A stretch of DNA of 52,630 nt from NCBI GenBank assembly GCA_937893945.1, contig CALCTA010000087.1, positions 1 to 52,630 on the forward strand, in the 5' to 3' direction. A program made the position numbers and the translations under genes. The notes below the pieces were generated by a model. The model made no database searches. It was given only the letters and a program-made list of their open reading frames with translations, and was not told where the DNA came from. Shown here in pieces: positions 5,601 through 44,029 of this stretch (its first letter is position 1; each line of letters starts with the position of its first letter). This stretch comes from an uncultured Clostridia bacterium (GTDB lineage Bacteria > Bacillota > Clostridia > Oscillospirales > CAG-272).

Positions 5601-6218
5601 GAAATCAAGCGAAGCTTGGTCTTCGGTACGCATAGCACAGTCCTTTACGTATCCGATACCCTCAGGCAATGATGAAAGATCAGAATGAAGCTTCAGGAAT
5701 ACCTCGTGCACGTTTCTGACCGAGCGGACAGAGCTGAAGCATTCAATAAATGCGGGGAAGTCGGGCTCTTTACTGTAAAGAGCGTCTATGCACTCGCACA
5801 TTATTCTTTTTGAAAGAATATCATACTCAGATTCGTCAACTATTCTGAATCCTGCGGAAAGCCCGAGCGTAGAAAAATTAGCGCGGACTATATCGAGATA
5901 AAATGAGTCAATAGTGCATATCTTGGCGCTTCCTATCTTCATAAGCTGAGAAGCAAGATGCTTGCTTGAGGGATCCTTGGCAAGCGCATCTCCAAGTGCC
6001 GAGAATATCCTTGTCTTGAGCTCAGCGGCGGCGGATCGCGTAAAGGTAACGATAAGCATTTTGGATATGTCGGCAGGATCAGAGACGTCGGTAATGCGCC
6101 GTATTATTCTTTCGGTGAGAGTAGCGGTCTTGCCCGAGCCTGCGGCGGCACTGACGAGAAGAGTCTTACCGCGTGTGTTCATGGCTTTTAGTTGGGCATC
6201 AGTCCATTTTCTTTCCAT
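2616..6218 (-). CDS. addA: ATP-dependent helicase/nuclease AddA
   Basis: 1200 aa. UvrD-type Walker A (AAAGSGKTATL). C-terminal RecB-family nuclease motif (IDLILIDEDGSVSLFDYKTD). AGGAGG RBS. Lies directly downstream of addB. Confidence 0.93.
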   Translation of the reverse strand: MERKWTDAQLKAMNTRGKTLLVSAAAGSGKTATLTERIIRRITDVSDPADISKMLIVTFTRSAAAELKTRIFSALGDALAKDPSSKHLASQLMKIGSAKICTIDSFYLDIVRANFSTLGLSAGFRIVDESEYDILSKRIMCECIDALYSKEPDFPAFIECFSSVRSVRNVHEVFLKLHSDLSSLPEGIGYVKDCAMRTEDQASLDFFATSYGEIQRNNASDMFEHYYLVFKSAMEYMQTDAPMEKAYGASFAYDLDYCDRLRVAVLDQNNGYSETKALLENYSAIPLGKLSAANASETSVGYKNMRSVFTKKLTSLREKSFSKPLESIRRAMKDTAKNLFILYELLSMFEEKITEEKNRLSLVTFDDVSRATMKLLVSEDGTPTDVARKYAEQYTDIYIDEYQDVDMLQDLIFRSISRPDNRFMVGDIKQSIYGFRGAEPRLFAEYRRAFPSIESSEAEISDNATIFMSDNFRCDSNVIKFTNDVCSVIFSACADTIGYTKNDDLGFSKPLPYEEYQSPKVKIAIITPSENDEDDDNDDLKGAERESEYIASEIARLIKNERKANGEPICPGDIAVLFRAKSFSPIIHAALEKRGILCSESDGERYFEDPDVLMMLCILNAIDNPERDIYLAGALRSPIFSFDMDELIRIRHFTDDGASLFGALKDYAAEGAEPLASKCRDFISTLDTWQKDAAALSVDRFIRMLFESERFIASGLVSQTNSKGEGGNLLMLYEYARKFENGSFKGLYQFIEYLNSLIEDGGKLPSDPKGVSSDRVSLMTIHKSKGLEFPVCFIVNTKASVRSKDSRESLVFEYPSGIALKISEQGGLARINTPMREAILARTSNKQMEEEMRVLYVALTRARERLYLTASSGANLDGFFASARANASFPDRYTIMQKCSSYLDWVFLAMNGKDNSSYDLEIIPYNDIPLCDEKASVKEEKVSAEADAELTERLKKEFAFKYKYAPLCRVPSKLSVSRLYPDVLDENDSSATLYDETIEKAEIPAFFTEGAPTRVSGAERGTATHLFLQFCDFENAHRNGTDEELSRLLEKKFLPEGASELIYKNELDAFMRSELIDLILSARSVIREQRFNVELSAKGFTSDEELLSMMEDDKLAVQGVIDLILIDEDGSVSLFDYKTDRLSKAELANETLAAKRMNEAHGLQLTYYAKAVELLFGRKCSRVSVYSTHAARLFEITPQF

Positions 6219-6230
6219 TTGCTCTCCTCC

Positions 6231-9200
6231 TTAAAAATCTTCGCCGTCGCCACGGTCTGTTCTTCGGCATATCGGTCGAGCCTGACAGTAATCACAGGGA
6301 AGTGATCTCTTGTGCTTCAAGGGTGTAGCATCAGCATTGCCCGCGCGAAGCTCGGAGGCTATCTTGCGAATTACAGCTTCAAGCTTGTCGTAGGTCTCGG
6401 CAAATTTCTCGCCGCTTGCGGCGGCAGAGCCCTCGTAAAGACCACTCTTGGCATTCTTTTTTATTCCAGCAAGGAATTTTGCGTCAAGCTCGCTGTTCAT
6501 AGCCACAAGCACGTCCTCATCGCTAAGCAACAATCCCGAGCGTTCAAGCTTTGAAGCCGCCTTGCTTATTATTTTTGCGGCGTCGCTGTAATCATCAGCT
6601 TCAACTACGGGAATATTTGCGGAGAGATATACTACGCCCGCAGGGAGCGTATCTCCACCGTCCTCAACACCAAGTGATCGCTTGAAATCAGCAGAATTAG
6701 TGCGGCAAAGTGTAAACAGATACAAAAGCATCTGCGTGTTTATCCCTTTGTCAATGTCCGCGAGATTGAAGTTTTTCGTTCCCGTCTTGTAATCCACTAC
6801 GCGTACGTAAACGTCAGCGCCCTTCTTATAGATATCAACACGGTCAATAATACCCGAGAAGGATATAGTTGAATTATCCTCAAGCTTGAATACGAGCGGA
6901 GAGGGAGCGCCGCCTATACCGTTTGCCTTAAGCTCAAAAAAGGCGGGGCGGAAGCTGCTCTTTGAGAATTCCTCAACGATATTTCCGACGAGCAGTAGTG
7001 AGAGAGTGCGCAAGCGTCTGTAAAGATGCGCCATTCGCTTGGAGTCAATAAGATGCGGCGGCGAGATACGGTTTACGTACTCGGAGATAGCCTTATCGGT
7101 CATCTCTATCAAAGTCTCCTCATCGGGCATTGGGGCGCTTGGGTCGTTGGGGATAGCGTTTTTCAAAAGTGTCTCAAGAACGAAATGTACAAAGGTTCCT
7201 ATGTCGTTTAAATTAAACTCTGCGTTTACCTTTTCTCTTAGCTTGAGAACGTAAGAGCAGTAATAGCTGAACGGACAGCGCGCGTATTTTTCAAAAGAGG
7301 ATGCCGAAAAATGAATGTTCGCGCCGAGCGCATCACCTACGCTGCTTGATGATACTCTACATTCCTGTGCTTTAGCTGATGAAGAAAGTGAGGAAGAGAT
7401 GTTCGGCACGTAGTCCTCAAGGGCACACGCGAGAGAGGCTCTTTTAGATTCGTCCTCTATAGCACGCCAAAAGCCCACTGCATTCTTGGGCGCAGGGACA
7501 AGATAGTCAAAATCGTCGCTTCTGTATGTATGCGCTATCTTATCGCCAAACAAAGCCTTAACTCTGTTAAAAGCGAGCGAGCTGAATCTTTCGGCGCCAT
7601 TTATCTCTGCGGTGTGAGTGAAAAGGAACAGCTTGTCAGAGGGAACAGAAAAGGCACGCTGAACGAACATAAGCTCATCAGACGAGCGAGAATCAACGTC
7701 GCCCGAAAGCTCAATGTCAAGATCAGCAAGAATAGCGCGATCTCCCTCTGAGAAAACGCCGTTATCGTTTACAGCGGCAGGAAATTCACCCTCGCAAAGC
7801 CCCATTATCAAGGCATATCTGACGCCTGAGGCACGGAAGGTAGATGCGGAACCTATAGCAACCTCGTCAATAGAGGTGGGTATGCTTCCTATATCGGTCT
7901 TGTCGAATATAGTTTTAAGTATAAGCGTAAGCTCCTCGCAGTCTGCCTCCTCGTCTCCTATCGCCTCAGCGACGCTTGCGAGAGTAGAAAGCATGACACC
8001 GTATATTCTTGAAAGCTCACGCGCTTGCTTTATATCTCCACGCTCTGCCGCCTTTTTTGAAAGCTCGGCAAGCTTGTCCTCAAGAGATACATCAAGCATA
8101 TATTTGTAGAGCGCACGACAAGCATCCGCAACATTTTCCGCGGCATCAAGCAGAACGAAAAGTTTGAGTAGCGGCGCGGTGAGTGCTTCTCTTACGCGAT
8201 TTGCTGCTTCAAGAATATTCATAGCTCGAGGAGAGAGCTTGTCTGTAAATCCGTCGGGATTCATAGTCCACTCACCAAGCAGAAATTGCTCGCCGTGTAT
8301 GCCCCAGGTGTTTACGTATTCTTCAAACAGGTCTGCATCTGTAGCGTCTATGCCGCAGAGACCTGTTTTAAGATAGGAAATAACGTCTCCTGTACGCCAA
8401 TTATAGCGCTTTATTCGGAGAGCGGAAAGTATAAATTTGACCGAAGGCATTGAGCAAAGGTCGCTCTTTTCAGAGAAGAAAAAGGGAATACCGCTCTTCT
8501 CTAAGGCAGGCTCTATAATTCCACGGTATTTTTCGGCGTCTCGCATAATTATAGCTATCTCGCGGCAACGCGCGCCGTTTTTGAGTAGCTTGAGAATATG
8601 TGCCGCCATAGCCTCTGCTTCAGCATAAGGATTGGGACATACCTCACAGATAATGCTTTCCGAAGGATCGGGAGGGGTGGAATTCTTTTCGTTTTTCTCC
8701 ATTCTCCAGAGATTTTTGGAGAGATATGCGAGAGCTTCAGAAGAGGCTCTCATATTTGCCGCAAGCAAAGTCTCCTTAGCGCCACCATATCTGTCGGCAG
8801 AGCGTCTGAGCTTCTGAAGTGAGCGCGATATGCTTTCTTCGCTAATCTCACGCTCTCCGAGAGAAGCCAAGGGAAGCGTAATAGTAGTATTGTCGGCACT
8901 ACCGAATATAAGCTCGATTATCTGATGCTCTACTGCAGTAAATGAAGTAAAGGAATCAATATATACGTTAGCACCCTCGAAGAAAGAATGTTCTTTAAGT
9001 ATATCGCGAAGTCTTGACAGATCATCAGAGGAATCACTGTACTTTTCTGAAACAAAATTGTCAAAGCAGGAATATATAAGCGAGAGATCCGAGAGCCTTC
9101 GCGCAAGCGCAGAGTCAGAGGGAAGCTTCTTTGATGCGTTTTCAAGCGCGGATGAGTTAACCCCCGCCGCCTTCAGCTCGCCAAGAGCCGAAAGCATCAG

Positions 9201-9564: not shown

Positions 9565-10341
9565 TCAATAAATTTCGGTTATTCTGCTCGCGTCTCTCAA
9601 TAACACGCGGTTCTTAAAGCGGTAGTAGAAATGCTTTCTGACAATAATGATATTATCGCCGTCCTTACGCGTGGTGAAATAATATCTTCTCTTTTTAGAA
9701 ATACCGCGAGAGAAAAACAGCCCCGGGGAAACTATAACACAAAGTGAGTTTGGCTGTTTTGCTATATCCTTTACCATACCCGCAAAGTAGCTCTCGTCAT
9801 CAAACGCGCTTCTTTTTGCAGGGAAAAATACCGTTACGTTCTTTCCCTTGACTAACGGCCGTGTCCTTTGGGTAGCCTTGCGAGCGCCAAGGAAGGTAAG
9901 CATAAATCCTATGCCCGAAAACAGAAAAACGAAGGGCAGAGCAATAATAAAGGCGGAAGTTGAAATAATAAATACAGCACCCGATTGGATGAGTGAAATG
10001 ATAAAAATGAGTATCCTTATGGTAGTGGAAACGAAGGTGAAACGGCGCACCGCATCAATGATGCCTGCGTATATCCAAAATACTGAGGCGTTCTTTACAG
10101 AGTGGCGAATATAGGAAAAATATTTTTTCTGCGAGAATGCGCCCTCGTCCTTAGCCTGTCGCAAAAATGCGGCTTCTACCTTATTTCTTCTGTGTAAAAG
10201 CTGCCGCGTAGAGCGCTTTTCCCGTTGCAGCTCATTCTTGAGAAAGGCTATCTCGCGATGAAGGCGCATATTTTCGTCGGTAAGCTCGCGTATTCTGTCG
10301 CGGCTCTCACGTTTTGCGATTTTTGCTTTTTTCCTCGACAT
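9565..10341 (-). CDS. Hypothetical membrane protein: basic coiled-coil N-terminus, about 3 TM helices, unknown C-terminal domain
   Basis: 258 aa. Residues 1-60 are Arg/Lys/Glu-rich and heptad-like (RIRELTDENMRLHREIAFLKNELQREKR). Hydrophobic stretches span about residues 85-165. I recognise no family. Its stop is 16 nt upstream of the addB start on the same strand. GGAGGA RBS. Confidence 0.6.
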   Translation of the reverse strand: MSRKKAKIAKRESRDRIRELTDENMRLHREIAFLKNELQREKRSTRQLLHRRNKVEAAFLRQAKDEGAFSQKKYFSYIRHSVKNASVFWIYAGIIDAVRRFTFVSTTIRILIFIISLIQSGAVFIISTSAFIIALPFVFLFSGIGFMLTFLGARKATQRTRPLVKGKNVTVFFPAKRSAFDDESYFAGMVKDIAKQPNSLCVIVSPGLFFSRGISKKRRYYFTTRKDGDNIIIVRKHFYYRFKNRVLLRDASRITEIY

Positions 10342-23410: not shown

Positions 23411-24247
23411 TCAATTATTATCGGACGGGGAGAGATCTCCGTCCTTTTTCTTTAAGCGCTCAAAGAAAAGGTTTATAATAAAGAGAGCCACGAGATACGC
23501 AACCGCGCCGTAAATAAAGTCAGAGAGATAATAAACTACCATTATCATGACCTCACCGAAGGATTCGGGAGCGCCGACAAAAACGTCGTTTATTATGCGC
23601 GTGCCTACCTTGATGACGGTGATCAATATACCCATTTTTATTGCCGAGCGCTGCAGAGGATTGTACCAATCAATAAATTTGGAAAAGGGAAGAACACTTC
23701 CGATCTGCTCGGCTTTGGCTCTTGCCTTGTCGCGCTTGGAGCTTCTGAGAGCCTCAATAGATGAAAGATAATGGCTTGAGTCGGTAGTAGCAAAGATATA
23801 TACCGCAAGAAGCTGAAGCAGATATAAAACGAAATATACCGAGAGATATATTACGTCTATAATTATCTGCTGACTGTTTCCGAGCGAGCCGTAAATAACT
23901 ACGTTCATAAGTATCTTTACGGGGATAACAAGGAGATACGTAGCCGCATAGAAAACCGCTATAAATCCCGAACGCTTTTTGTCAAGCAAAAGCGACGAAA
24001 AGATAATAAGAGCATACGCCGAGGAAAATGCGAACAGGTCAAAGAAATCCTGAATGTATTTTATCACTACCGTAAGCAATGAGCCTGAATAAAGCGTGTT
24101 CGCCTCAAGCGTTGCGTAAATTGGAATTATTACTAAATTATTCAGAATAAGCGGAAGCAAGAAAAAGAGTGCCATAAACAGCCACAGCATCTTGCTTACA
24201 CGTTTTTTGTTGTTCAGCTCTGTCTGACAGGCAATAAGCTCGGTCAT
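23411..24247 (-). CDS. Hypothetical polytopic membrane protein (about 6 TM)
   Basis: 278 aa, very hydrophobic (Leu/Ile/Tyr/Phe-rich), with a central charged loop (SSKRDKARAKAEQ). AGGGGG RBS. I recognise no family. Confidence 0.6.
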   Translation of the reverse strand: MTELIACQTELNNKKRVSKMLWLFMALFFLLPLILNNLVIIPIYATLEANTLYSGSLLTVVIKYIQDFFDLFAFSSAYALIIFSSLLLDKKRSGFIAVFYAATYLLVIPVKILMNVVIYGSLGNSQQIIIDVIYLSVYFVLYLLQLLAVYIFATTDSSHYLSSIEALRSSKRDKARAKAEQIGSVLPFSKFIDWYNPLQRSAIKMGILITVIKVGTRIINDVFVGAPESFGEVMIMVVYYLSDFIYGAVAYLVALFIINLFFERLKKKDGDLSPSDNN

Positions 24248-24456
24248 ATAGTCCCCCTAAAGATATATTTAGAACATTATATCACAAAACTTATGAAAAG
24301 TGTATAGGTATTTGTAAATTATTTTTTATTAAGAAAATTTGTTTAAGAAAATGTAAATTAATTTTTTTATTGAAGAAAATATCAAAATAACTGTTTACAA
24401 AATGAAAAAAATGTAGTAAAATATATGCAGTATGTATATAAAGGGGTAATTTGCTT

Positions 24457-25176
24457 ATGTGTAACGCTTCACAGCCAAAGTACAAGAGAATTCTCCTCAA
24501 GCTCTCCGGCGAGGCTCTCGCAAGAGACAAGGAAGGAATTCTTGATTTCGATTTTATCACCTCAGTGGCAGAAGTCCTGAAAAAATGCGTTGACGCAGGG
24601 ATACAGGTCGGTGTTATAGTAGGTGCGGGAAACATATGGAGAGGTAGGCAGGGTGGCTCTATGGACAGAGTCCGTGCCGACCAGATGGGAATGCTCGCCA
24701 CCACTATAAACGCTCTCGCGCTTGAGGAGACCTTCAAGCAGTGCGGACTTTCTGCTGTCGCTATGACAGCCGTTGAAATGAATGCCTTTGCAGAGCAGTA
24801 CACTCCCAGAGCTGCCGTTGCGGCGCTTGAGGAGGGAAAGGTCGTTATCTTCGGATGCGGTCTTGGTTCACCCTTCTTCTCGACCGATACAGCAGGCGCG
24901 CTCCGTGCGGCTGAAATAGGTGCTGACGCGTTGCTTCTGGCTAAGAACATAGACGGTATCTACACGGCTGATCCCAAGATAGATCCGACTGCCGTACGCT
25001 ACGATGATATTTCCTACAACGATATTCTCAGTAAGGAGCTTAAGGCTCTCGATCTTACTGCAGCTGCATTCTGTATGGATAACAACATCTGCGCTTATGC
25101 CTTTGAGCTTAAGGATCCGATGAACATATACCGTGTTGCTATGGGCGAAAAGATAGGCACTGAGCTTCACAGATAA
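24457..25176 (+). CDS. pyrH: UMP kinase
   Basis: KRILLKLSGEAL and GAGNIWRG motifs. I chose the ATG at 24457 over the TTG at 24451; the choice is uncertain by 2 codons. Confidence 0.92.
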   Translation: MCNASQPKYKRILLKLSGEALARDKEGILDFDFITSVAEVLKKCVDAGIQVGVIVGAGNIWRGRQGGSMDRVRADQMGMLATTINALALEETFKQCGLSAVAMTAVEMNAFAEQYTPRAAVAALEEGKVVIFGCGLGSPFFSTDTAGALRAAEIGADALLLAKNIDGIYTADPKIDPTAVRYDDISYNDILSKELKALDLTAAAFCMDNNICAYAFELKDPMNIYRVAMGEKIGTELHR

Positions 25177-25231
25177 TTCGTTCCCGAATAAATTTAAATT
25201 AACGAAATATAATACTATACGGAGGTTTATT

Positions 25232-25786
25232 ATGAAACTCAATACAAAGGATTTTGAGACAAAAATGCAGAAATCCGTAGCTTCCTATCAGGAGAGCCTT
25301 ACGGTCATTCGCGCAGGTCAGGCTAATACCGCTATACTCGCTAAGGTAAGCTTTGAATACTGGGGCGCGCCCACACTCATCAGCTCCATGGCTGACGTGC
25401 GCGTTGCAGATACCAAGACAGTTACTATCACCCCCTATGATGCTTCCACGCTTAAGGCTATGGAAAAGGCTATTCTCGCGTCTGACATAGGAATCACCCC
25501 CACCAATGACGGTAAGGTTATCCGTCTCGTATTCCCCCAGCCTACAGAAGAGCGCCGTAAGGAGCTTGTAAAGCAGGTTCAGAAGATGGGCGAGGAGGCT
25601 AAGGTAGCTATCCGTAACATAAGAAGAGACGCTAACGATCTTTGCAAGAAGATGAAGAAGGACGGCGAGATGACCGAGGACGAGCAGAAGGCATCCGAAA
25701 AGTCTGTTCAGGATCTCACCGATAAGTACATTAAGGACATAGATGGCGTTACTGCCAAGAAGGAAAAGGAGATCATGCAGATCTGA
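25232..25786 (+). CDS. frr: Ribosome recycling factor
   Basis: 184 aa. Typical Frr sequence (VRAGQANTAIL, ITPTNDGKVIRL, EERRKELVK). pyrH-frr synteny. Confidence 0.93.
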   Translation: MKLNTKDFETKMQKSVASYQESLTVIRAGQANTAILAKVSFEYWGAPTLISSMADVRVADTKTVTITPYDASTLKAMEKAILASDIGITPTNDGKVIRLVFPQPTEERRKELVKQVQKMGEEAKVAIRNIRRDANDLCKKMKKDGEMTEDEQKASEKSVQDLTDKYIKDIDGVTAKKEKEIMQI

Positions 25787-25796
25787 CATCAGTGTT

Positions 25797-35216: not shown

Positions 35217-35996
35217 TTATCCGAAAATAACGTCAAGTATCATCATTATTGAAAATCCAAGTGCGAAAAATACCGCTCCCGATTCGCCGCGCCCGCTGAC
35301 GAAAGGCATCAGCTCCTTGACCACGGCGTATATCATTGCGCCTGCCGCAAATCCGAGAAGAAAGGGAAGAATGGGTAAGATTACCGATACAGCAAGCAGA
35401 GTGAGAGCCGCTCCAATAGGCTCGACTATCCCCGAGGCTACTCCGTACCAGAACGCTTTGCCTTTTTTCATACCTTCCGCGCGAAGTGGCATTGATATTA
35501 TCGCACCCTCCGGGAAGTTTTGTATAGCTATTCCGATCGAGAGCGCCAAAGCGCCCCCAAGTGCCTCTCCCGAGGGAGCTGCGATAAGTGCCGCATATAC
35601 AACACCGACGGCCATACCCTCAGGAAGATTGTGTAGAGTAACAGAGGTAAAAAGCATACTGCTCTCACCAAAGCTCCGTTTTGCCTTTTTCAGAAGCTCA
35701 CCCTCGTTTACTCTTGACAAAAGAGAGGACGTAAGAACAAGAAAAAGAATGCCGAACCATACACCGAGCGTTGCGGGAAGAAAGGCAAATCTACCTAAGG
35801 AGACAGAGCTTTCGTATTCCATTGCGGGTATAAGCAAGCTCCATACCGATGCCGCTACCATCACTCCCGCGGCTATTCCCGAAATAGCTCTTCTGAAACC
35901 GTCGTCAAGCTCACGCCGCATAAAGAAAACGCAGGCAGATCCAAGCATAGTACCGAAAAGCGGTATCAGACACCCTAAAATAATTTCAAAAAACAT
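35217..35996 (-). CDS. zupT: ZIP-family divalent metal transporter (ZupT-like)
   Basis: 259 aa, about 8 TM. Signature HNLPEG (TLHNLPEGMAVG) and a second QNFPEG motif. GAGG RBS. Confidence 0.85.
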   Translation of the reverse strand: MFFEIILGCLIPLFGTMLGSACVFFMRRELDDGFRRAISGIAAGVMVAASVWSLLIPAMEYESSVSLGRFAFLPATLGVWFGILFLVLTSSLLSRVNEGELLKKAKRSFGESSMLFTSVTLHNLPEGMAVGVVYAALIAAPSGEALGGALALSIGIAIQNFPEGAIISMPLRAEGMKKGKAFWYGVASGIVEPIGAALTLLAVSVILPILPFLLGFAAGAMIYAVVKELMPFVSGRGESGAVFFALGFSIMMILDVIFG

Positions 35997-36089
35997 AGCT
36001 TACCTCACATAGCAAAAACCAAGATGTGCCTATTACTTATTTTATGTAAGAACCGGACTATTGTTCTGACTAAAAAAACATTATGAATT

Positions 36090-36107
36090 TTTAACAAAAT
36101 TGTTAAA
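36090..36107. promoter_or_regulatory. Perfect palindrome TTTAACAA-AA-TTGTTAAA (candidate operator)
   Basis: 8-bp arms with a 2-nt centre. It lies 16 nt upstream of the -35 of the LRR/SPFH operon promoter and about 95 nt upstream of the divergent ZIP start codon. Confidence 0.4.
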
Positions 36108-36123
36108 CAAGAAAGCAAAGTGA

Positions 36124-36152
36124 TTGACAAATTGCTATCTTTATGATAAAAT
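36124..36152 (+). promoter_or_regulatory. Near-consensus sigma-70 promoter with extended -10 for the LRR/SPFH/ATPase operon
   Basis: TTGACA (36124-36129)-17 nt-TAAAAT (36147-36152), preceded by TGa. This places the transcription start after the track ATG at 36143, which argues for the 36203 start codon. Confidence 0.7.
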
Positions 36153-36202: not shown

Positions 36203-37144
36203 ATGAGATCAAAAAAACTTACTTTGATTGTTTTGGCGTGCATCCTTGCCTTAAGCGCTCTTACAGGCTGCTCGTCATCCTTTGACGATACTCAGTACGC
36301 GGTAATATCCCAAAGCAACGTAAGCGCTGATGGATTTATCTACAGTGTTTACGAAAATAATACCGCAGTCATCACAGGTATAAACACAGCCGACACCGAA
36401 ATGACCATTCCGGATACAGTCGGAAACTATAAGGTAGTCGAGATAGGCGCAGATGCCTTTTCGGGCAACGAGATCACAAAGCTCGTTACTATTGGCAGTA
36501 ACGTAGAGAAGATCGGTGCGAATGCGTTTTCTGACTGTGCAGCGCTCGTTCGCGTTGATATGACCGAGAACGTAAAGAAGATCAGCTCGGGCGCTTTTTA
36601 TAACTGCGAAAATCTTTGCGAGGTGAAGGGCGCGACGGGTGTCATAGTTATCGAGGAGGTAGCGTTCTACGCTTGCGCTTCGCTCGCTCGCTTTGACCTT
36701 CCCGAAACGCTTAAGACCATAGGCAACGAAGCCTTTGGCGCTTGTGAATCCTTGGTAGAGGTAAAGCTGCCTGAGAAGATCGAATCGGTAGGACTTGGCG
36801 CATTCTCCTATTGCTCCTCGCTCTCAAGACTTGATCTTGGCGGTCTTACCGAGGTTCCTGAAAAGGCATTTCTCAGATGCACCTCTCTCGGAAAGGTAGT
36901 TATCGGTGAAAACGTAACCTCAATAGGTGTTCAGGCATTCAGAGGCTGCGACGTTCTTAAATACGTTTACATAGACAAAAATGTAAAGACCGTCGGCGCA
37001 TCGGCTCTCTCCACCTGTCCTCTTCTTGAGATAAGCTATTCGGGATCAGAGGCAAATTGGAAGAAGATAAACTTTGCCGAGGGCAACGAAGGTCTGGAGA
37101 CCGTTAAGATAACCTATAAGCAGAAGCTTGATAAGGCTAAGTAA
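36203..37144 (+). CDS. Lipoprotein with BspA-type leucine-rich repeats (LRR_5-like)
   Basis: Signal peptide with lipobox (MRSKKLTLIVLACILALSALTG|C). Repeats of the pattern I..IG..AF..C..L..V.. (for example VEKIGANAFSDCAALVRVDM, VKKISSGAFYNCENLCEV). AGGAGG RBS before 36203. Confidence 0.8.
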   Translation: MRSKKLTLIVLACILALSALTGCSSSFDDTQYAVISQSNVSADGFIYSVYENNTAVITGINTADTEMTIPDTVGNYKVVEIGADAFSGNEITKLVTIGSNVEKIGANAFSDCAALVRVDMTENVKKISSGAFYNCENLCEVKGATGVIVIEEVAFYACASLARFDLPETLKTIGNEAFGACESLVEVKLPEKIESVGLGAFSYCSSLSRLDLGGLTEVPEKAFLRCTSLGKVVIGENVTSIGVQAFRGCDVLKYVYIDKNVKTVGASALSTCPLLEISYSGSEANWKKINFAEGNEGLETVKITYKQKLDKAK

Positions 37145-37157
37145 GGAGGGAAGCAAT

Positions 37158-38183
37158 ATGAAGAAAAATCCTGCTATTAAATTTATATCTCTCCTGCTCA
37201 TCGCTATCTTCGTTCTCGGCACAGCCGTTTCCTGTACGGATAAAACAAAGAACGAGCCTTACGTAGTTCCCGAAAGAGTCAACTCCGACTCAACAATATA
37301 CACATCCGGGTATTATGAGTATTATCTCTACGAGGATGGCACCGCCGTTATACTCACCTATAAGGGCGAGGAGCTTGACGTAAACGTTCCTAACGAATTT
37401 GACGGTCATAAGGTAGTCGAGATCGCTCCTGCGGCATTCCAATACAACAGAGTTATCCAGAACGTAACGCTCGGTGATGATCTTGAGGTCATCGGAGAGG
37501 GTGCGTTCTACAGCTGTCGAGCGCTCAAGAGCATAAAGATCGGCCCTAAGGTAAGAAGCATCGGCCCCGGTACATTTGACGATACCGCCTACAACGAAAC
37601 TTTGACTGATGAGTTCGTAATAGTTGGCGACTCTCTGCTTCTCAAATATTGCGGAACAGATACGTCGGTAACTATCCCTGATAACGTAAAGCATATCGGC
37701 CCTGCATTCAATTCCAACGAAACTATCGTTGACGTTACTATGGGAGACAACGTGGTAACAGTAGGAAGCGGAGCGTTCGTCTTCAGCACGGTCAGACGCG
37801 TTACTATAGGAAATAACGTAGTTCTTATTGATACTTACGCATTCCAGGGCTGCGAGAAGCTCAGATACGTAAATATTCCCGACTCTGTAAAAAGAATTTC
37901 TTATTACGCTTTCTACGGCTGCACGAGCCTTAAGAATATCTCGCTCGGTAAGGGCGTGGAGACGATAGACGATTATGCCTTCTATCAGTGCTCTCAGATG
38001 AATTATATAAATCTCCCCAAAACGCTCAAGAAGATAGGAGACTTCGCATTCAAGGATTGCTATAAGCTCCTGTACGTATATTATGAGGGATCTGAGGCAG
38101 ATTACGAGGCACTCGGAATAACGGGAACTAACCATATCATTTCGGACGCGAAAAAGTTTTACAACTACAATTACGAGGGATAA
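37158..38183 (+). CDS. Lipoprotein with BspA-type leucine-rich repeats (paralogue of the preceding gene)
   Basis: Signal peptide MKKNPAIKFISLLLIAIFVLGTAVS|C, a slightly atypical lipobox. Same LRR_5-like periodicity (LEVIGEGAFYSCRALKSIKI, VKRISYYAFYGCTSLKNISL, LKKIGDFAFKDCYKLLYVYY). AAGGAGGG RBS. Confidence 0.8.
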   Translation: MKKNPAIKFISLLLIAIFVLGTAVSCTDKTKNEPYVVPERVNSDSTIYTSGYYEYYLYEDGTAVILTYKGEELDVNVPNEFDGHKVVEIAPAAFQYNRVIQNVTLGDDLEVIGEGAFYSCRALKSIKIGPKVRSIGPGTFDDTAYNETLTDEFVIVGDSLLLKYCGTDTSVTIPDNVKHIGPAFNSNETIVDVTMGDNVVTVGSGAFVFSTVRRVTIGNNVVLIDTYAFQGCEKLRYVNIPDSVKRISYYAFYGCTSLKNISLGKGVETIDDYAFYQCSQMNYINLPKTLKKIGDFAFKDCYKLLYVYYEGSEADYEALGITGTNHIISDAKKFYNYNYEG

Positions 38184-38186
38184 ATA

Positions 38187-39992
38187 ATGGAACCTAAACG
38201 CAAATTCGGCGGCGTTTTGCCGATAATTCTGTCAAGCGCGTTTATGGTGGCTATTTCGGTGCTGATGTTTATACTTTACAGCACTTCAAAATATCTGCCG
38301 TATCTTCTTGTCGCTTTGGCAGTAACTCTGTTCATCGGCGTAAATCTGCTCCTTTCATTACTTGGCATGCAGATACCGATGACAAAGCCTTGCAAAAAAC
38401 CTTGCGAGCAGGTCTCGGAAGGTGAGGATAGCGAAAACGCTAAAAAAAGCAAAAAGAAGCTTAAAGGACTTCTCAGTACTCTTGCATATGCGCTTAAAAT
38501 GGCGGCTTACGGCGTAGTATTCGCGTATAACAAGATATACAGAATACTTCAGCTCGTGCTTTTTGGCGGACTCTTTGTTTTTCTTGAAATATACTTTGGA
38601 ATGATGCTCAAGAGAATAACCTCTGTTTACGTTATCTCTCTCTGGCAGCCTGTCTTATTCATAGTCTTGCTCGTCCTTGCCGTAATCCTTGACAAATGGT
38701 GTAAGCATTTTGAGGACGCGAGCGAGCGCAGCAGAGCATTGCTCGGTAATCTCAGAGTATTTTTCTATCTTACAAAGCTGATCCTCATTCTCGTTTCGGT
38801 ATCAAGCGCTATAAAGCTCCTTAACTTCGGTGAGATACAGAAGTACATCGCGTATATAATCACGGCTATATATTACTACGCCTCCGCGATGATACTTGTT
38901 TCGGTTGCGGTCAACGTTATCCGCAGAGAGCTTTCCACACGTCCTAAGATAACTATTCCGTTGCCGTTCGCAAGCGGCGACACCAAGGAATTCGGAGTTA
39001 TATCTTTCCTTGAAAAAAACACGGGTATCACGATGCGTGGACTATGGAGCATGCGCCTTATCAAGAACGTCGTACCTTATTCGGTTATAGTAGTAATTTT
39101 GCTGTTTTGGATATCTACGGGAATAGTTCAGGTAGAATCCTACCAGGAAGGCGCGGTATATCGCTTAGGCAAGCTTACAGATGATACGCTCGAGCCCGGA
39201 ATTCATATGACGCTTCCGTATCCGATAGATAAAGTAGAGCTTTATGACACTGAAACTGTCAATAAGATGACTATAGGATACGCCGCAAAGGAAGATACAG
39301 ACAATTTATGGACGGGTACACACGGAACTAACGAGCATAAGCTTTTGCTTGGTAACGGAAACGAGCTGGTCTCGCTTAACTTAAGACTTGAATACAGGAT
39401 AAGCGATCTTCAAAAGTACCTTCGCACATCCTCGAATCCCGCTTCTATCCTTGAATCTCAGGCATATGCGCTTATAACCGACAGAATCATATCCACCAAT
39501 CTTGAAACGCTTCTTTCGGTTGACAGAGATGCCTTTACCGAAAGCTATACAAACGAGCTTAAGGCGAGATTTGCTGAATACGACGTGGGACTTGAGATAG
39601 TCAGCGTGGTGCTTGAAAGCATTCACCCGCCGCTTGATATCGCTGCTATATACCAAAAGGTAATAAGCGCGGAAATAGAGGCAGAGGAAATGATAACCCG
39701 CGCACAGTCTAAGGCAAACGTAAAGATAACAGCAGCCGAGGCAGAGAAGGAAGCGAGCATAAACGCGGCTAACGCTGAGTATTATCGCAAGAAAGCAACC
39801 GCGGTTGCTGACGTAGCTGAATTCAATGCAAGCGTAGAGGCGGCAAACGGTAACCCCGATGCTTATCATTACTATAAGTATCTTAACGCTATGGCGCAGG
39901 CTTACGGAAAAGCAAAGCTTGTTATAGTCGGAGAGGGCGTTGACAGCTCCAAGATATTCTTTGGAAATCTTGGCAACGTCGTTTTAAATTAA
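38187..39992 (+). CDS. Polytopic membrane domain (about 8 TM) fused to an HflK-like SPFH/Band-7 domain
   Basis: 601 aa. Residues 1-320 are hydrophobic, with a charged loop KPCKKPCEQVSEGEDSENAKKSKKK. The rest is SPFH core (EGAVYRLGKL...EPGIHMTLPYPIDKVELYD) plus an Ala/Glu-rich coiled-coil C-terminus ending YYKYLNAMAQAY..KLVIV. Confidence 0.75.
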   Translation: MEPKRKFGGVLPIILSSAFMVAISVLMFILYSTSKYLPYLLVALAVTLFIGVNLLLSLLGMQIPMTKPCKKPCEQVSEGEDSENAKKSKKKLKGLLSTLAYALKMAAYGVVFAYNKIYRILQLVLFGGLFVFLEIYFGMMLKRITSVYVISLWQPVLFIVLLVLAVILDKWCKHFEDASERSRALLGNLRVFFYLTKLILILVSVSSAIKLLNFGEIQKYIAYIITAIYYYASAMILVSVAVNVIRRELSTRPKITIPLPFASGDTKEFGVISFLEKNTGITMRGLWSMRLIKNVVPYSVIVVILLFWISTGIVQVESYQEGAVYRLGKLTDDTLEPGIHMTLPYPIDKVELYDTETVNKMTIGYAAKEDTDNLWTGTHGTNEHKLLLGNGNELVSLNLRLEYRISDLQKYLRTSSNPASILESQAYALITDRIISTNLETLLSVDRDAFTESYTNELKARFAEYDVGLEIVSVVLESIHPPLDIAAIYQKVISAEIEAEEMITRAQSKANVKITAAEAEKEASINAANAEYYRKKATAVADVAEFNASVEAANGNPDAYHYYKYLNAMAQAYGKAKLVIVGEGVDSSKIFFGNLGNVVLN

Positions 39993-40004
39993 GAGGACGA
40001 AAAA

Positions 40005-41120
40005 ATGAAAAAAGAAAAAATAACCGATATAAATGAAAACACAACCGCTATAAAGGCAAAGAAAAAAGAGAAGAAGAGTGAGGGAAGCGTATCCTTTCTT
40101 ATTCTCAAGATAGCTATTGCGCTTATAGTTGCTCTTGTCGTAGTGTATTTTGGATTTACCTGCGAGGTAAGAGAAAGTAACGCCGCTATTATTCTTCGCT
40201 TCGGCGCGCCCAGAGCGGAAATAACCGAGGCAGGACTTTACTTCAAGCTTCCTTGGCCGTTTGAGACTGTAGTTACTTACGATAACCGAGTTCAGTATCT
40301 CGAATCCAACAATCACGAAACTACCACTATGGATAAGAAGAATATTATCCTTCAGTCCTATGCGGTATGGCAGATCAAGGATCCTCTCGTTTATCACAAT
40401 TCTGTAGGAAACACCGGAACGGTTGATTCTTATATTAAAGACCAGATCAAGAACGCTACTAATAGCGTAATGGGTACTTATAATCTTTCGGATCTTATAT
40501 CGTCTGAAAACGAAGATCTTAAGACGGAAGAGATACAGCAGAAGATTTTTGAGCTTGTAAAGGCTACCTGCGAAGCAAATTACGGTATCTCTATAGTTGA
40601 CGTAAGCATTCTTCGTATATCCTATCCCGACGCTAACCTTCAGGCTATTTTTGCTAATATCAGCGCAGAGCGTCAAGGCGTTATTGACAAGATAATCGCA
40701 GACGCCGAGGCTAAGGTAAGCGACATAACCTCGTCCGCAGACGCTGAGGCAGAGAAGATAAAGGGAGAGGGAATAACCAAGGCGGCTGAGATCAGAGCTC
40801 AGGCTGAAAAAGAGGTTGCGAACATATACGCTAACGCGCAGACAGCAAATATAGAGCTCTATAAGTTCTTGAAGGAGCTGGATACTATCGTTAACTCTGT
40901 AAACGACGGAACAGTTCTCGTTGTAGATTCGGAGTCTTATCCCTTTAATATTCTTCTTGAATACGGCTCGTCGGTAGATAATAGCTCTGACGATAAGGTC
41001 GTAGAGGATCTTACTTACATTCTCGCTACGTTGAGAGCTGAAGGAAAGAGCAAGGAGGCAGAGGATCTCGTTAACGCGATCAATGCACTTATCATTTCCT
41101 ACAGTAAAGGAGAGTCCTGA
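40005..41120 (+). CDS. HflC-like SPFH/Band-7 membrane protein
   Basis: 371 aa. One N-terminal TM helix. SPFH core (ESNAAIILRFGAP...AGLYFKLPWPFETVVTYD). Coiled coil and ELYKFLKELDTI C-terminal motif typical of HflC-type proteins. Confidence 0.75.
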   Translation: MKKEKITDINENTTAIKAKKKEKKSEGSVSFLILKIAIALIVALVVVYFGFTCEVRESNAAIILRFGAPRAEITEAGLYFKLPWPFETVVTYDNRVQYLESNNHETTTMDKKNIILQSYAVWQIKDPLVYHNSVGNTGTVDSYIKDQIKNATNSVMGTYNLSDLISSENEDLKTEEIQQKIFELVKATCEANYGISIVDVSILRISYPDANLQAIFANISAERQGVIDKIIADAEAKVSDITSSADAEAEKIKGEGITKAAEIRAQAEKEVANIYANAQTANIELYKFLKELDTIVNSVNDGTVLVVDSESYPFNILLEYGSSVDNSSDDKVVEDLTYILATLRAEGKSKEAEDLVNAINALIISYSKGES

Positions 41121-42061
41121 TGAAAAAGAAGAACGCAATATTTGAAGACGTACTATCCACGGTAACGAAATATTTTATAGTTCTCGTGGTGGTTGTAGTT
41201 CTTTTTATATGCTTCTCAGGTGTCCGCTTCGTAAAGAGCGGAGAGGTTGCTATAGTGCTCAGATTTGGAAAGCTCGTAGGAGACACGCGAGATGAGCAGA
41301 TACACGAGCCGGGCATTCTCTTTGCTTTCCCGTATATAATAGACGAGGTGGTTACCGTCCCCACGGAGACGGTAATGGAAAGAACCGTTACAACACATTA
41401 TACAGAGGGTAATATGACCACCCTTCGCAATAACGGCTACGTTATTACAGGAGACAGTAATATTGCCGTTATGAAGGTGTCTGTAAAATATACTATTTCC
41501 GACCCTGTGGCATATGCATTGAACGTAAACAGCATTGAAAGTATTATAGACGCATCGGTCAGCAACGCCATGCTTGAAAAGGCGGCTTGCACAAAATTTG
41601 ACGATATTCTCACAACGGGAAAAGAGGAATATAGCACTTCTGTCAGAAGTATGGCTCAGAGCAATCTGAACAACTATAATGCAGGTATTACTCTTAACAC
41701 GGTAGAGCTTACTGCCGTCGCCGCTCCCGAGGAAGTAAGAAGTATTTACGAGCAGGTAAATACCGCTTCTGTAGAGGCGGAAAAAATGCTTAAGGAAGCA
41801 AATCAGTACCGCGATAACCTGCTTATCAAGGCTCAGGCAGAGGCTAATTCTACAGTCTCTGCGGCAAGCAGCGCAAAATCTCAGGCGGTATCATCCGCAA
41901 ACGCCGATCTTGCAAGCTTCTGGGGAATGCTCGAGGAATACGAGGCTAACCCCGAGGTAGTTACAACAAGAGTGTATAGCGAGAAGTTCTCGACTGCTAT
42001 CTCAAAAATAGGTAAGATCTACGTCGTCAAGGATGGAGATAATACTATTATAATAAACTAA
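41120..42061 (+). CDS. HflK-like SPFH/Band-7 membrane protein
   Basis: 313 aa. One N-terminal TM helix. SPFH core (SGEVAIVLRFGKL...EPGILFAFPYIIDEVVTV) and an Ala/Ser-rich coiled coil. Its start overlaps the previous stop (TGATGA). Confidence 0.75.
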   Translation: MKKKNAIFEDVLSTVTKYFIVLVVVVVLFICFSGVRFVKSGEVAIVLRFGKLVGDTRDEQIHEPGILFAFPYIIDEVVTVPTETVMERTVTTHYTEGNMTTLRNNGYVITGDSNIAVMKVSVKYTISDPVAYALNVNSIESIIDASVSNAMLEKAACTKFDDILTTGKEEYSTSVRSMAQSNLNNYNAGITLNTVELTAVAAPEEVRSIYEQVNTASVEAEKMLKEANQYRDNLLIKAQAEANSTVSAASSAKSQAVSSANADLASFWGMLEEYEANPEVVTTRVYSEKFSTAISKIGKIYVVKDGDNTIIIN

Positions 42062-42070
42062 GGAGGCTGT

Positions 42071-43969
42071 ATGGAAAACTTAGATAACATAGCAAAAAGC
42101 AGCCTCGAAGCTCTGTCAAAGGACAATCTTACTGTAAAGGGCAAAAAGAAGCTCAGACGAGAGATCATCAGCGGCGCAATAGCGCTTTCCTGCCTTGCTG
42201 TAGGTCTTATTTACAGTTGGGTATTTCCCGGCAAGACAGTCGTTCCCGCGCTTCTTTATACGGTTGGCTTTCTGATAGAGGGCATTCCTGTATTCTGGGC
42301 GGCTCTCAAAGGCATCTTCTCCAAGAACCTTTCAAACGCCATGGAAATGCTCGTGGCTATCGCTATATTCGCCTGCTATTTTTCAGGCGACCTCATTCTT
42401 GCGGTTCTTATACCGCTTATACTCAACATCGCGCATCTTCTTGAGGAAAGAAGCATTATGGGCGGACGAGACGTTATTGACGGTCTTCGCCGCATGCAGC
42501 AGAACACCGCTATTCTTTTAGACGGTGAGGAAGAGAAGGTGGTTGACGCGAGATCTCTTAAGATAGGTCAGAAAATACTTATCAAGCCCGGTGTGGGTAT
42601 TCCGATCGACGGAATCGTACTCAGCGGAGAGACAAATATAGACCAGAAATCGCTTACCGGTGAGCCTCAGCCTGCGCATGTGCAGACGGGCGACAACGTG
42701 TATGCGGGAACAGTCAATATTGACGGTAGAATAGTCGTTGAAGTAAAAAAGGAATTCGTTGATACCTCCTTTTCAAACATTCTCGCACTTCTTGAAAAAT
42801 CCGAAAGCATTTCTGTCCCTGAATCGCGTATCATCGACCGCTTTATGAAATACTACATACCTCTTATTCTTGCTATTGCCGCGGCTGTTGCTCTTATCAC
42901 GTCTGATATCAACAAGGCTATAGCTATACTCGTGGTTTCTTGTCCTTGCGGACAGATGCTCGTAAGCTCCGCGCCTATGATAGCAGCTCTCTCGGCAGCA
43001 ACCAAGAGAGGTATCCTCATAAAGAACTCTAAGTTTATCGAAGAGCTTACCGAGATAGATGCCGTAGTCTTTGATAAGACGGGTACAGTTACCGTCGGCG
43101 ACCTATCCTTAACAGAAATATGCCCCGCAGAGAACGCAAGCGAGGATGAACTTCTTGTGGCGGCTGCTACAGTTGCGAGTGCTTCAACTCACCCCATTTC
43201 AAGAGCCTTGATGAACTCTGTTTCTGAGCTTGCATACGAAAAGGATTACTCAGTTAAGGAGCTTTCAGGCAAGGGAATGGAGGGTATCTCACCCGACAAA
43301 AAGCATACTATCCTCTTTGGCAATGCCGATTGGCTGCGCTCTCTCGGATTTGAGGTCGAAGAGCCTGAAGGACTTGCGGGCTCTGTAAGCTTTGTAGTAT
43401 CCGACGGCAAGGTGCTTGGATGTCTTTCCTTTAACGATACCGTCAGAGAAGAAGCCAAGGCAGGCATCGACACACTTCGTACAATGGGAATCGAAAAAGC
43501 CGTTATGCTCACAGGAGACAGAAGAGAAGCCGCAGAGCGAATTTGTGCTCAGGTGGGAATAGATACCCTTGAGGCTCAGCTTCTCCCCGAGGATAAGCTT
43601 GCGTCCCTCAAGAAGCTAAAGGAAAATAATTACGTGCTTGCAGTAGGCGACGGTATTAACGATGCTCTCGCGCTCAAGGAAGCTCACGTTGGTATCGCAA
43701 TGGGTGCGATGGGCTCGGATCTTGCAATAGAATCCGCGGATATCGCGCTTATGAATAACAACCTTATGAACATTCCTTTTGCAATTAAGCTTGCAAGAAA
43801 AACGAGGAATATCGTTTATCAAAACCTTGCACTTTCTATAGGTATCAGCGCCCTGATGATAGGACTTTCCGCGTTTGGCGTTATCAGCGCACTCGCAGGC
43901 TCTGTTCTCCACAACCTCGGAGCTTTCGTAGTCCTCATTAACAGCTCGCGAATTCTCAAAACAGAGTAA
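42071..43969 (+). CDS. P1B-type (heavy-metal) P-type ATPase without an N-terminal metal-binding domain
   Basis: 632 aa. TGEP (SLTGEPQP), transmembrane CPC (VSCPCGQ), DKTGT, GDGINDA. No CxxC/HMA or His-rich N-terminus. The last TM carries HNLGAFVVLINSSR. Confidence 0.85.
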   Translation: MENLDNIAKSSLEALSKDNLTVKGKKKLRREIISGAIALSCLAVGLIYSWVFPGKTVVPALLYTVGFLIEGIPVFWAALKGIFSKNLSNAMEMLVAIAIFACYFSGDLILAVLIPLILNIAHLLEERSIMGGRDVIDGLRRMQQNTAILLDGEEEKVVDARSLKIGQKILIKPGVGIPIDGIVLSGETNIDQKSLTGEPQPAHVQTGDNVYAGTVNIDGRIVVEVKKEFVDTSFSNILALLEKSESISVPESRIIDRFMKYYIPLILAIAAAVALITSDINKAIAILVVSCPCGQMLVSSAPMIAALSAATKRGILIKNSKFIEELTEIDAVVFDKTGTVTVGDLSLTEICPAENASEDELLVAAATVASASTHPISRALMNSVSELAYEKDYSVKELSGKGMEGISPDKKHTILFGNADWLRSLGFEVEEPEGLAGSVSFVVSDGKVLGCLSFNDTVREEAKAGIDTLRTMGIEKAVMLTGDRREAAERICAQVGIDTLEAQLLPEDKLASLKKLKENNYVLAVGDGINDALALKEAHVGIAMGAMGSDLAIESADIALMNNNLMNIPFAIKLARKTRNIVYQNLALSIGISALMIGLSAFGVISALAGSVLHNLGAFVVLINSSRILKTE

Positions 43970-43990
43970 AGCACTTATAAACGTAAAAAA

Positions 43991-44011
43991 AGCCCCGACA
44001 AAGTCGGGGCT
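43991..44011. terminator. Bidirectional intrinsic terminator
   Basis: AGCCCCGAC-AAA-GTCGGGGCT flanked by an A-run and a T-rich tract, between the ATPase and purC stops. Confidence 0.8.
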
Positions 44012-44029
44012 TTCAGTATTTTTATACAA

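Follow-up and report, generated by a model that had tools for sequence, protein, structure and literature searches.

The 52,630-nucleotide (nt) contig CALCTA010000087.1 of an uncultured Clostridia bacterium (Oscillospirales, CAG-272; assembly GCA_937893945.1), referred to below as the window, carries a six-gene operon on its + strand at 36,203–43,969. Its genes, numbered in order, encode two paralogous lipoproteins with LRR_5 leucine-rich repeats (LRRs; g1 and g2), an HflK-like protein that is long and polytopic (g3), an HflC-like protein (g4), a second, shorter HflK-like protein (g5) and a P1B-type ATPase (g6) (Table 1). The last four of these genes form a module that is spread over Clostridia and Alpha-, Beta- and Gammaproteobacteria.

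An initial sequence-only reading of the window had described six same-strand genes bracketed by one promoter and one terminator, and this arrangement was confirmed. All six open reading frames (ORFs) are present, preceded by a sigma-70-type promoter that matches the consensus at 11 of 12 positions and is the top-scoring + strand site 5' of the block, and followed by an intrinsic hairpin. The terminator is called on both strands, and is thus common to the operon and the convergent purC gene. Within the block, 10 terminator-like sites were counted against 9.9 expected from shuffled sequence, which is no excess. The intergenic distances of 13, 3, 12, −1 (a TGATG overlap) and 9 nt from g1 to g6, together with a Shine-Dalgarno sequence ahead of each of the six starts, agree with the tight spacing and coupling proposed in that reading.

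A hidden Markov model domain search placed Band_7 on g3, g4 and g5, LRR_5 on g1 and g2, and E1-E2_ATPase and Hydrolase on g6. With the NCBIfam scores given below, this supports the earlier assignment of three SPFH proteins, two HflK-like and one HflC-like. The reported absence of FtsH and NfeD genes also stands, as no match to either was found in the block or among the other 20 window genes scanned. Neither ftsH nor hflX was found among the window genes scanned, and no NfeD domain was detected in any of the six proteins, which sets the operon apart from SPFH–NfeD operons. PADLOC returned no anti-phage defence match.

Table 1 Features of the operon in the window, and genes with His-rich N-terminal tails in proteobacterial blocks (aa, amino acids; TM, transmembrane).
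Feature	Record	Position	Strand	Details
20-bp perfect palindrome TTTTAACAAAATTGTTAAAC	window	36089..36108		ends 15 nt before the −35 hexamer; within the 206 bp between g1 and the divergent ZIP gene
Sigma-70-type promoter	window	36124..36152	+	TTGACA-17 nt-(TG)-TAAAAT; 11/12 match, TG extension
g1, BspA-type LRR lipoprotein, accessory	window	36203..37144	+	313 aa; LRR_5 1e-47; signal peptide and LTGC lipobox
g2, BspA-type LRR lipoprotein, accessory	window	37158..38183	+	341 aa; LRR_5 5e-46; AVSC lipobox
g3, long HflK-like SPFH subunit	window	38187..39992	+	601 aa; Band_7 1.4e-16; hflK 104.4 bits, below cut-off
g4, HflC-like SPFH subunit	window	40005..41120	+	371 aa; one N-terminal TM helix; TIGR01932 hflC 147.1 vs 134.4 cut-off
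g5, short HflK-like SPFH subunit	window	41120..42061	+	313 aa; one N-terminal TM helix; TIGR01933 hflK 154.5 vs 159.4
g6, P1B-type ATPase	window	42071..43969	+	632 aa; E1-E2_ATPase and Hydrolase; TIGR01525 (heavy-metal P1B) 495.6 bits
Bidirectional intrinsic terminator	window	43989..44013	both	11–12 bp stem, 7 G-C pairs
Gene with His-rich N-terminal tail	L086	9198-10235
Gene with His-rich N-terminal tail	L088	5927-6964
Gene with His-rich N-terminal tail	L089	8494-9513
Gene with His-rich N-terminal tail	L087	11070-12986
Gene with His-rich N-terminal tail	L089	10552-12507

Homologues of g3 number more than 500, extend at full length down to about 45% identity and all come from uncultured gut or rumen Clostridia. 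For a survey of gene neighbourhoods, one genome per GTDB species was retained, giving 117 relatives, of which the best 80 (g3 identity 39–89%) were annotated. In 74 of these 80 loci, g3, g4, g5 and g6 lie in the same order on one strand, whereas the remaining six have a block truncated by the end of the contig. Median gaps across the 74 loci are 9.5 nt (g3–g4), −4 nt (g4–g5) and 11 nt (g5–g6). Across 64 loci, genes from 36 families were seen directly 3' of the ATPase gene, and one locus (L003) has entirely different flanks; the block has therefore been held together while its surroundings vary. Since it was found in every testable related locus, its conservation goes far beyond chance. The sequence-only reading was to be abandoned if related genomes lacked the block, and the core was conserved in all 74 testable loci. 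Typically, hflK and hflC occur as a pair alone or behind hfq–hflX. This setting was not seen here; beside the pair there is invariably another SPFH gene, the third, together with a P1B ATPase gene.

The same block was found well outside the Clostridia. Plasmid records searched in translation with g3 yielded proteins annotated as HflK, the alignment starting at the conserved pre-anchor segment. The block occurs in the same order on Burkholderia ubonensis pMSMB2035, Klebsiella aerogenes pYD-K10_1, a B. cenocepacia chromosome and a Rhizobium tumorigenes plasmid; two metagenome contigs (L092 and L093) carry it in full and in the same order, and a third (L091) has a partial copy. On pMSMB2035 and pYD-K10_1, respectively, the block encodes HflK (K1; 631 and 568 aa), HflC (C; 345 and 334 aa), an SPFH/HflK protein (K2; 347 and 359 aa) and a cation-translocating P-type ATPase (P; 649 and 638 aa). 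Each protein has its best match at the equivalent position of the operon (K1/g3, C/g4, K2/g5 and P/g6), with identities to the proteobacterial proteins of 24–25%, 29%, 24–28% and 34%, respectively. Profile alignment of the long subunits with hhalign gave a probability of 99.9 (E 2e-32) over g3 residues 273–585.

The proteobacterial blocks thus resemble the clostridial one in gene order, protein sizes, the CPC and His-Asn motifs of the ATPase and an LW(T/D/S)xxH loop in the long subunit. They differ in the N-terminal polytopic part of that subunit, which cannot be aligned with its clostridial counterpart, in having no LRR genes, and in lying, in some cases, on mobile plasmids. An N-terminal tail rich in His is carried by the HflC-like subunit in Burkholderia and Rhizobium (e.g., MSLFHSHAHDHAHHGHGHDHHAHHG) and by the ATPase in Klebsiella and Rhizobium (Table 1). 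For a scaffold subunit, such a cytoplasmic tail would be difficult to account for if the scaffold had no part in metal handling.

Several further features were observed. On metagenome contig L092, two small genes lie 3' of the ATPase gene (6435–7664), one encoding a membrane protein with the His-rich stretch HDLFHVFHPLH, a possible accessory. On the Klebsiella plasmid (L087), a DUF4198 gene (2.3e-14; 5642–6229) lies about 1 kb 5' of the block, with a TetR gene just before it; the DUF4198 family includes periplasmic metal-binding components. Over its first ~195 residues, protein P0293 (599 aa) resembles the C-terminal region of a short SPFH subunit, and an ATPase segment follows. This protein may stem from fused genes or from a frameshift with read-through at the K2–ATPase junction.

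Scored against the curated NCBIfam equivalog cut-offs (134.4 bits for TIGR01932 hflC, 159.4 bits for TIGR01933 hflK), g4 lies above the hflC cut-off, g5 slightly below that for hflK and g3 clearly below it. The HflC-like g4 scores 85 bits against E. coli HflC, 142–144 bits against HflC of the proteobacterial blocks and 162–180 bits against that of the metagenome blocks, while g5, whose start overlaps the g4 stop, scores 90 bits against E. coli HflK. Both g4 and g5 are predicted to have a single N-terminal hydrophobic helix behind a Lys-rich tail. The closest solved structure for all three subunits is E. coli HflK/C, and a Foldseek search with the g3 model placed E. coli HflK/C entries 7vhq and 9cz2 on top (E 5e-13). 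An HflK/C-like architecture, that is, a Band_7/SPFH domain followed by a coiled coil, is accordingly found by Pfam for g3 to g5, with the fold match by Foldseek for g3.

The predicted architecture of the long subunit g3 consists of six N-terminal transmembrane helices, a conserved juxtamembrane motif (LExNTGITMRxLWS), an anchor helix, an extracytoplasmic SPFH domain and a coiled coil. By the positive-inside rule, its N-terminus is in and its SPFH domain out. The prediction comprises seven helices, six plus an HflK-type anchor, and not the 8-helix domain that had been assigned to the polytopic subunit from the sequence alone. An outward loop motif, LW(T/D/S)xxH, lies at g3 residues 369–384 (window 39,291–39,338) and is present in all seven long subunits compared, from Clostridia to Proteobacteria (its equivalents lie in L086–L089, L092 and L093). 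It is missing from g4 and g5, and could be a partner- or metal-binding site. The juxtamembrane motif, in the form G(I/V)(T/D)(M/L/I)(R/G), was found in five of the seven long subunits examined.

The N-terminal domain of g3 (residues 1–298, 38,187–39,080) matched no Pfam family and no PDB fold significantly, using two AlphaFold models (predicted local distance difference test scores of 68 and 73.5) and two PDB fold searches. Zinc transporters of the CDF family (ZnT7, YiiP, ZnT1, ZnT3 and SLC30A10) recurred as weak top matches (E ~1–10, TM-score ≤ 0.42); this likeness was rejected because no Asp or His is conserved within the helices. A PCKKPC sequence in a g3 loop was also rejected as a metal site, as it is not conserved. 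Residues 168–174 form a conserved predicted cytoplasmic loop, (D/E)K(W/Y)xxH.

Judged from its motifs, g6 is an intact pump that is not of the ZntA type. The catalytic motifs TGE, DKTGT, TGD and GDGIND are intact, eight transmembrane helices are predicted, and 73 clostridial orthologues all have SCPCGQM in transmembrane helix 4 (TM4) and, in the last helix, the pair His614-Asn615. The N-terminus leads straight into the first helix, and the search for an N-terminal HMA/CxxC metal-binding domain gave no HMA match in g6; such a domain is usual, though not universal, in P1B-2 exporters. Among solved structures, ZntA (4umv, 289 bits) comes nearest to g6, with the P1B-4 pump sCoaT second. In alignment with ZntA, K693 corresponds to Ser and D714 to Asn, with the His-Asn pair invariant. 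Among the features of P1B-2 pumps (ZntA/CadA), g6 therefore has the CPC motif and lacks the TM5 Lys, the TM6 Asp and the HMA domain, and in place of the SPC (TM4) and His-Glu (last helix) motifs of P1B-4 pumps, it has CPC and His-Asn. It nonetheless scores above the cut-offs of the NCBIfam heavy-metal and cadmium subfamily models.

The last-helix His of g6 presumably occupies the position of the P1B-4 His-Glu pair (register set by eye), and by its motifs the g6 family looks like a hybrid of P1B-2 (CPC) and P1B-4 (His-Glu, here His-Asn). The CPC motif and His-Asn pair are common to g6 and the block ATPases of Burkholderia, Klebsiella and Rhizobium, and a profile search of 1.84 billion representatives recovered the signature in most top matches. 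As a marker of SPFH linkage, however, the His-Asn signature was rejected, because two ATPases (on L094 and L090, described below) carry it without SPFH genes; CPC with His-Asn thus marks a wider P1B subgroup.

The first two genes of the operon show a different pattern of conservation. Products g1 and g2 are paralogues (28% identity, E 5e-36), and both have LRR_5 repeats after a lipoprotein signal peptide, as do BspA-type surface lipoproteins. The g2 stop codon lies 3 nt ahead of the g3 start. LRR genes are found directly 5' of g3 in most related clostridial loci, and at one locus (L081, 6812–8755) a single 647-aa LRR lipoprotein, apparently a fusion, replaces g1 and g2 in that place. The pair is missing, however, in 25 of the 80 loci, nearly all of which have unrelated housekeeping genes 5' of g3 instead (1-phosphofructokinase-like, nucleotidyl-transferase-like or lgt-like, judged from their N-termini). 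The LRR pair was found in no proteobacterial or metagenome block examined. The LRR genes are thus a lineage-specific addition, and because the pair is absent from these 25 loci and from the proteobacterial and metagenome blocks, the core is the four genes g3 to g6.

Of 78 related loci (L001–L084), 54 have an exact TTGACA and a −10 match in the region 5' of g3–g6 or of the whole operon, nearly all with a 17-nt spacer and mostly with a TG extension. A weak AT-rich element, TAT(A/G)TAT, lies just 3' of the −10 (information content 7.9 versus 5.0–5.6 in shuffles). Regulatory sites were sought as palindromes, enriched k-mers, inverted repeats compared with control and shuffled regions, and Gibbs motifs, a crude set of searches in which nothing but the promoter itself and this AT-rich element stood out. 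On its sequence, the palindrome TTTTAACAAAATTGTTAAAC (Table 1) is a candidate operator, conserved solely in the closest relative (L006). Another palindrome, GTGA(C/T)TAAATCAC, abuts the −35 hexamer in L004, L009, L010 and L013. Divergent from the operon lies a ZIP-family zinc transporter gene (35,217–35,996, − strand, Pfam Zip 1.6e-16). It adjoins the block solely in the 11 closest loci and was for that reason rejected as part of the module; its position probably reflects synteny, though it would fit a zinc theme.

Elsewhere in the window, a ZMP/ZTP riboswitch (RF01750, 46,200–46,282, + strand, 62.6 bits) precedes purE and is unrelated to the operon. Four ORFs of 196–278 aa on the − strand (9565–10,341, 23,411–24,247, 24,291–24,950 and 25,199–25,789) gave no match in Pfam (E 1e-5). 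Otherwise, the part of the window that was scanned holds ordinary clostridial housekeeping genes (dnaJ, prmA, addAB, an HtrA-like protease, a two-component system and nrdDG), with polC just 5' of the block.

A locus of matching description has been reported in Pseudomonas aeruginosa. PA2439–PA2435 encodes an HflK-family protein, HflC, a third HflC/K-family protein and, last, the P1B ATPase HmtA, with no FtsH or NfeD gene reported. The likeness was drawn from published gene descriptions and order, not from alignment. No Pseudomonas record was returned by homologue searches seeded with the Burkholderia and Klebsiella ATPases (which gave only Burkholderiaceae and Enterobacterales), by cluster look-ups or by the plasmid search. 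With the same block in three proteobacterial classes and this matching description, the composition is not undescribed, contrary to what the sequence-only reading had suggested.

The Pseudomonas locus has been linked repeatedly to zinc. Pederick et al. found PA2435 (HmtA, a 'P-type ATPase importer'), PA2437 (HflC family), PA2438 (HflC) and PA2439 (HflK family) up 5–14 fold in a zinc-starved znuA mutant, and a weak Zur site at the locus (PMC4542158). Zur shifts the promoter of PA2439, the first gene of the hmtA locus (PMC8531726). In proteomics, zinc depletion raises PA2435, PA2437, PA2438 and PA2439 (PMC11761036), and a transcriptome study that gives PA14 locus tags places PA2437–39 in the Zur regulon (PMC9431628); both studies annotate PA2437–39 as FtsH modulators. 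These PA14 tags identify PaFlo5, PaFlo6 and PaFlo7 as PA2439, PA2438 and PA2437. In a 2026 study, PaFlo5–7 form one operon, with a genomic context that recurs in a few species of different classes, and P. aeruginosa has a separate canonical hflK–hflC operon besides them; that study makes no mention of an ATPase (PMC13086221). When overexpressed, HmtA raises cellular Zn and Cu (PMC10393844, PMC11923076). A 2009 survey of prokaryotic SPFH operons mentions no ATPase partner, and in the literature on this locus we found no treatment of the scaffold and pump as one assembly.

Taken together, we interpret the operon as the clostridial form of a conserved four-gene module in which an HflK/C-type scaffold is coupled to a metal pump, probably for Zn or Cu supply, a reading that we consider the probable one without holding it as secure. 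It is reasonable to propose, given a conserved and tightly coupled unit, that the SPFH proteins form a scaffold dedicated to the pump. The sequence-only reading had likewise proposed an SPFH scaffold that organises the pump; a conserved, dedicated SPFH–pump unit remains plausible, while its undescribed status and the LRR proteins as an integral component do not stand. We infer physical association, metal identity, transport direction and the LRR role in what follows. The HflC-like and two HflK-like subunits would assemble together, much like HflK/HflC in E. coli, and build a ring or cage anchored in the membrane. Their SPFH and coiled-coil parts would lie outside; the short tails at their N-termini, and the domain of six helices that the long subunit has, would lie in and under the membrane. 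The co-encoded pump would be the client of this cage, instead of or besides FtsH, and the scaffold might stabilise, confine or regulate the pump. Contact could be made through the six-helix domain and juxtamembrane segment of the long subunit, or through the cytoplasmic tails. By analogy with PA2439–PA2435, the unit most probably serves transition-metal supply (Zn, possibly Cu) under scarcity and not classical detoxification. The LRR pair, presumably added at the 5' end of the module in one sub-lineage, may act as outer-face adaptors specific to these monoderm gut bacteria.

A more specific version of this model is tentative, and we regard it as possible but doubtful. Here, the three HflK/HflC-type subunits would form a dedicated cage with the P1B pump, and not FtsH, as client, a metal-acquisition microdomain conserved from Clostridia to Proteobacteria in which the polytopic subunit and its LW(T/D/S)xxH loop contact or feed the pump, and on the outside of which LRR lipoproteins dock in gut Clostridia.

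Several observations weigh against a scaffolded metal-supply pump. The clostridial block proteins lack His-rich tails. No Zur, Fur or ArsR box or common palindrome was found 5' of the clostridial blocks by the crude motif searches described above, nor any riboswitch in the operon leader by Rfam, and the clostridial promoter looks, from its sequence, strong and constitutive. Equivalence with PA2435–PA2439 is one of published composition and order. In Pseudomonas itself, Ducret et al. found that hmtA mRNA was not repressed by zinc, reviewers have called the import direction of HmtA unusual and in need of confirmation (PMC10393844, PMC11923076), and triple deletion of PaFlo5–7 gave only slight phenotypes in a study that did not cover metals (PMC13086221). 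Finally, two His-Asn ATPases have no SPFH neighbours, one (L094, 6699–8923) lying behind a CsoR/RcnR-type repressor gene and the other (L090, 2515–4458) behind a TPR protein.

Under the main rival, a metal efflux or resistance module, Zn, Cd, Co or a related ion would be exported by an ATPase of the ordinary kind, and the role of the SPFH proteins would be to protect or organise the membrane during metal stress. P1B ATPases are generally exporters; both of the closest solved structures, ZntA and the P1B-4 pump sCoaT, are exporters, g6 passes the heavy-metal and cadmium models, and annotation pipelines label its homologues as Zn/Cd-exporting ATPases. Two of the blocks, moreover, lie on conjugative plasmids beside insertion sequences and Tn3 elements, as resistance islands often do, and the L094 repressor gene next to a related His-Asn ATPase is a typical efflux layout. 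We nevertheless consider efflux unlikely, since the ZntA-type Lys and Asp are invariantly replaced by Ser and Asn, and no MerR, ArsR or CsoR gene directly adjoins the SPFH-linked blocks examined (the Klebsiella plasmid has only a TetR gene ~2 kb 5'). The Pseudomonas locus of like composition is, in addition, induced by zinc starvation and not by excess, and overexpressed HmtA leads to metal accumulation in cells.

Two further explanations appear improbable to us. In one, g4 and g5, with g3, are simply the HflC and HflK of the host acting on FtsH, and the ATPase is merely co-transcribed, e.g., for joint adjustment of zinc-dependent FtsH and metal balance. This would suit the equivalog scores of g4 and g5, the E. 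coli HflK/C structure as best solved match and the annotation used in the Pseudomonas papers. It sits poorly with an ATPase adjacency that is invariant over four bacterial classes while surroundings change, with the constant presence of a third, polytopic SPFH subunit, and with the separate canonical hflK–hflC operon that P. aeruginosa has besides PaFlo5–7. Furthermore, g4 is closer to block-type HflC than to that of E. coli (142–180 versus 85 bits), and the scanned window genes include no ftsH or hflX. The other explanation, given as little credence, is a six-component undescribed assembly with an SPFH ring whose obligatory role is to organise the pump and both LRR lipoproteins. One promoter and one terminator do serve all six genes, g2 ends immediately ahead of g3, most related clostridial loci have LRR genes in that position, and one has a fused double-length lipoprotein there. 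Yet the pair is missing from 25 of the 80 loci, nearly all of which have unrelated housekeeping genes there, it is absent from every proteobacterial and metagenome block examined, and the four-gene core already has a described Pseudomonas counterpart. The LRR proteins as an integral component are thus not borne out, and the proposal of a scaffold gating an ion pump and cell-surface LRR proteins is not directly supported.

What is new here is the clostridial form with LRR lipoproteins; the module itself is already known, although mechanistically unexplored. SPFH cages (HflK/C, stomatin, prohibitin, erlin and flotillin) are known structurally, whereas the client and purpose of most bacterial ones are not. 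By tying a three-subunit HflK/C-like scaffold genetically to one specific pump in distant phyla, the module makes the role of an SPFH scaffold for its client directly testable in tractable hosts such as Pseudomonas and Burkholderia. If our interpretation of a pump-dedicated scaffold is true, a P1B pump would be a new class of client for bacterial SPFH cages. The module may also explain why HmtA is unlike other P1B ATPases and why PA2437–39 belong to the zinc-starvation regulon, and a pump studied without its scaffold may have left out part of the system. It also suggests that uncultured gut Clostridia have a device for metal supply that includes surface lipoproteins.

The system can be set against several known ones. 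The P. aeruginosa locus, alike in the composition described above, contains one additional small gene (PA2436) and is flanked by a hypothetical gene (PA2434); LRR lipoproteins have not been reported for it. It is under documented Zur control, whereas no Zur-like site was found in the clostridial blocks, and its host is diderm, so that the SPFH parts would face the periplasm. With the E. coli HflK/HflC–FtsH cage (7vhp, 7wi3, 9cz2), the clostridial block shares an HflK-type and HflC-type pair with, by prediction, N-terminal anchors and outward SPFH and coiled-coil parts, but it adds a third subunit with six extra transmembrane helices, and in place of the hfq–hflX context it has a P1B ATPase with no ftsH nearby. 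The pump shares the P1B core and CPC motif with ZntA/CadA (P1B-2), departing from ZntA at K693 and D714 and in having no N-terminal HMA domain, and it differs from sCoaT/PfeT-type (P1B-4) pumps in its CPC for SPC and His-Asn for His-Glu. Finally, as in SPFH–NfeD pairs (e.g., QmcA–YbbJ, PDB 8z5g), an SPFH scaffold here shares an operon with a membrane partner; in this case, with no NfeD domain among the six proteins, that partner is a pump.

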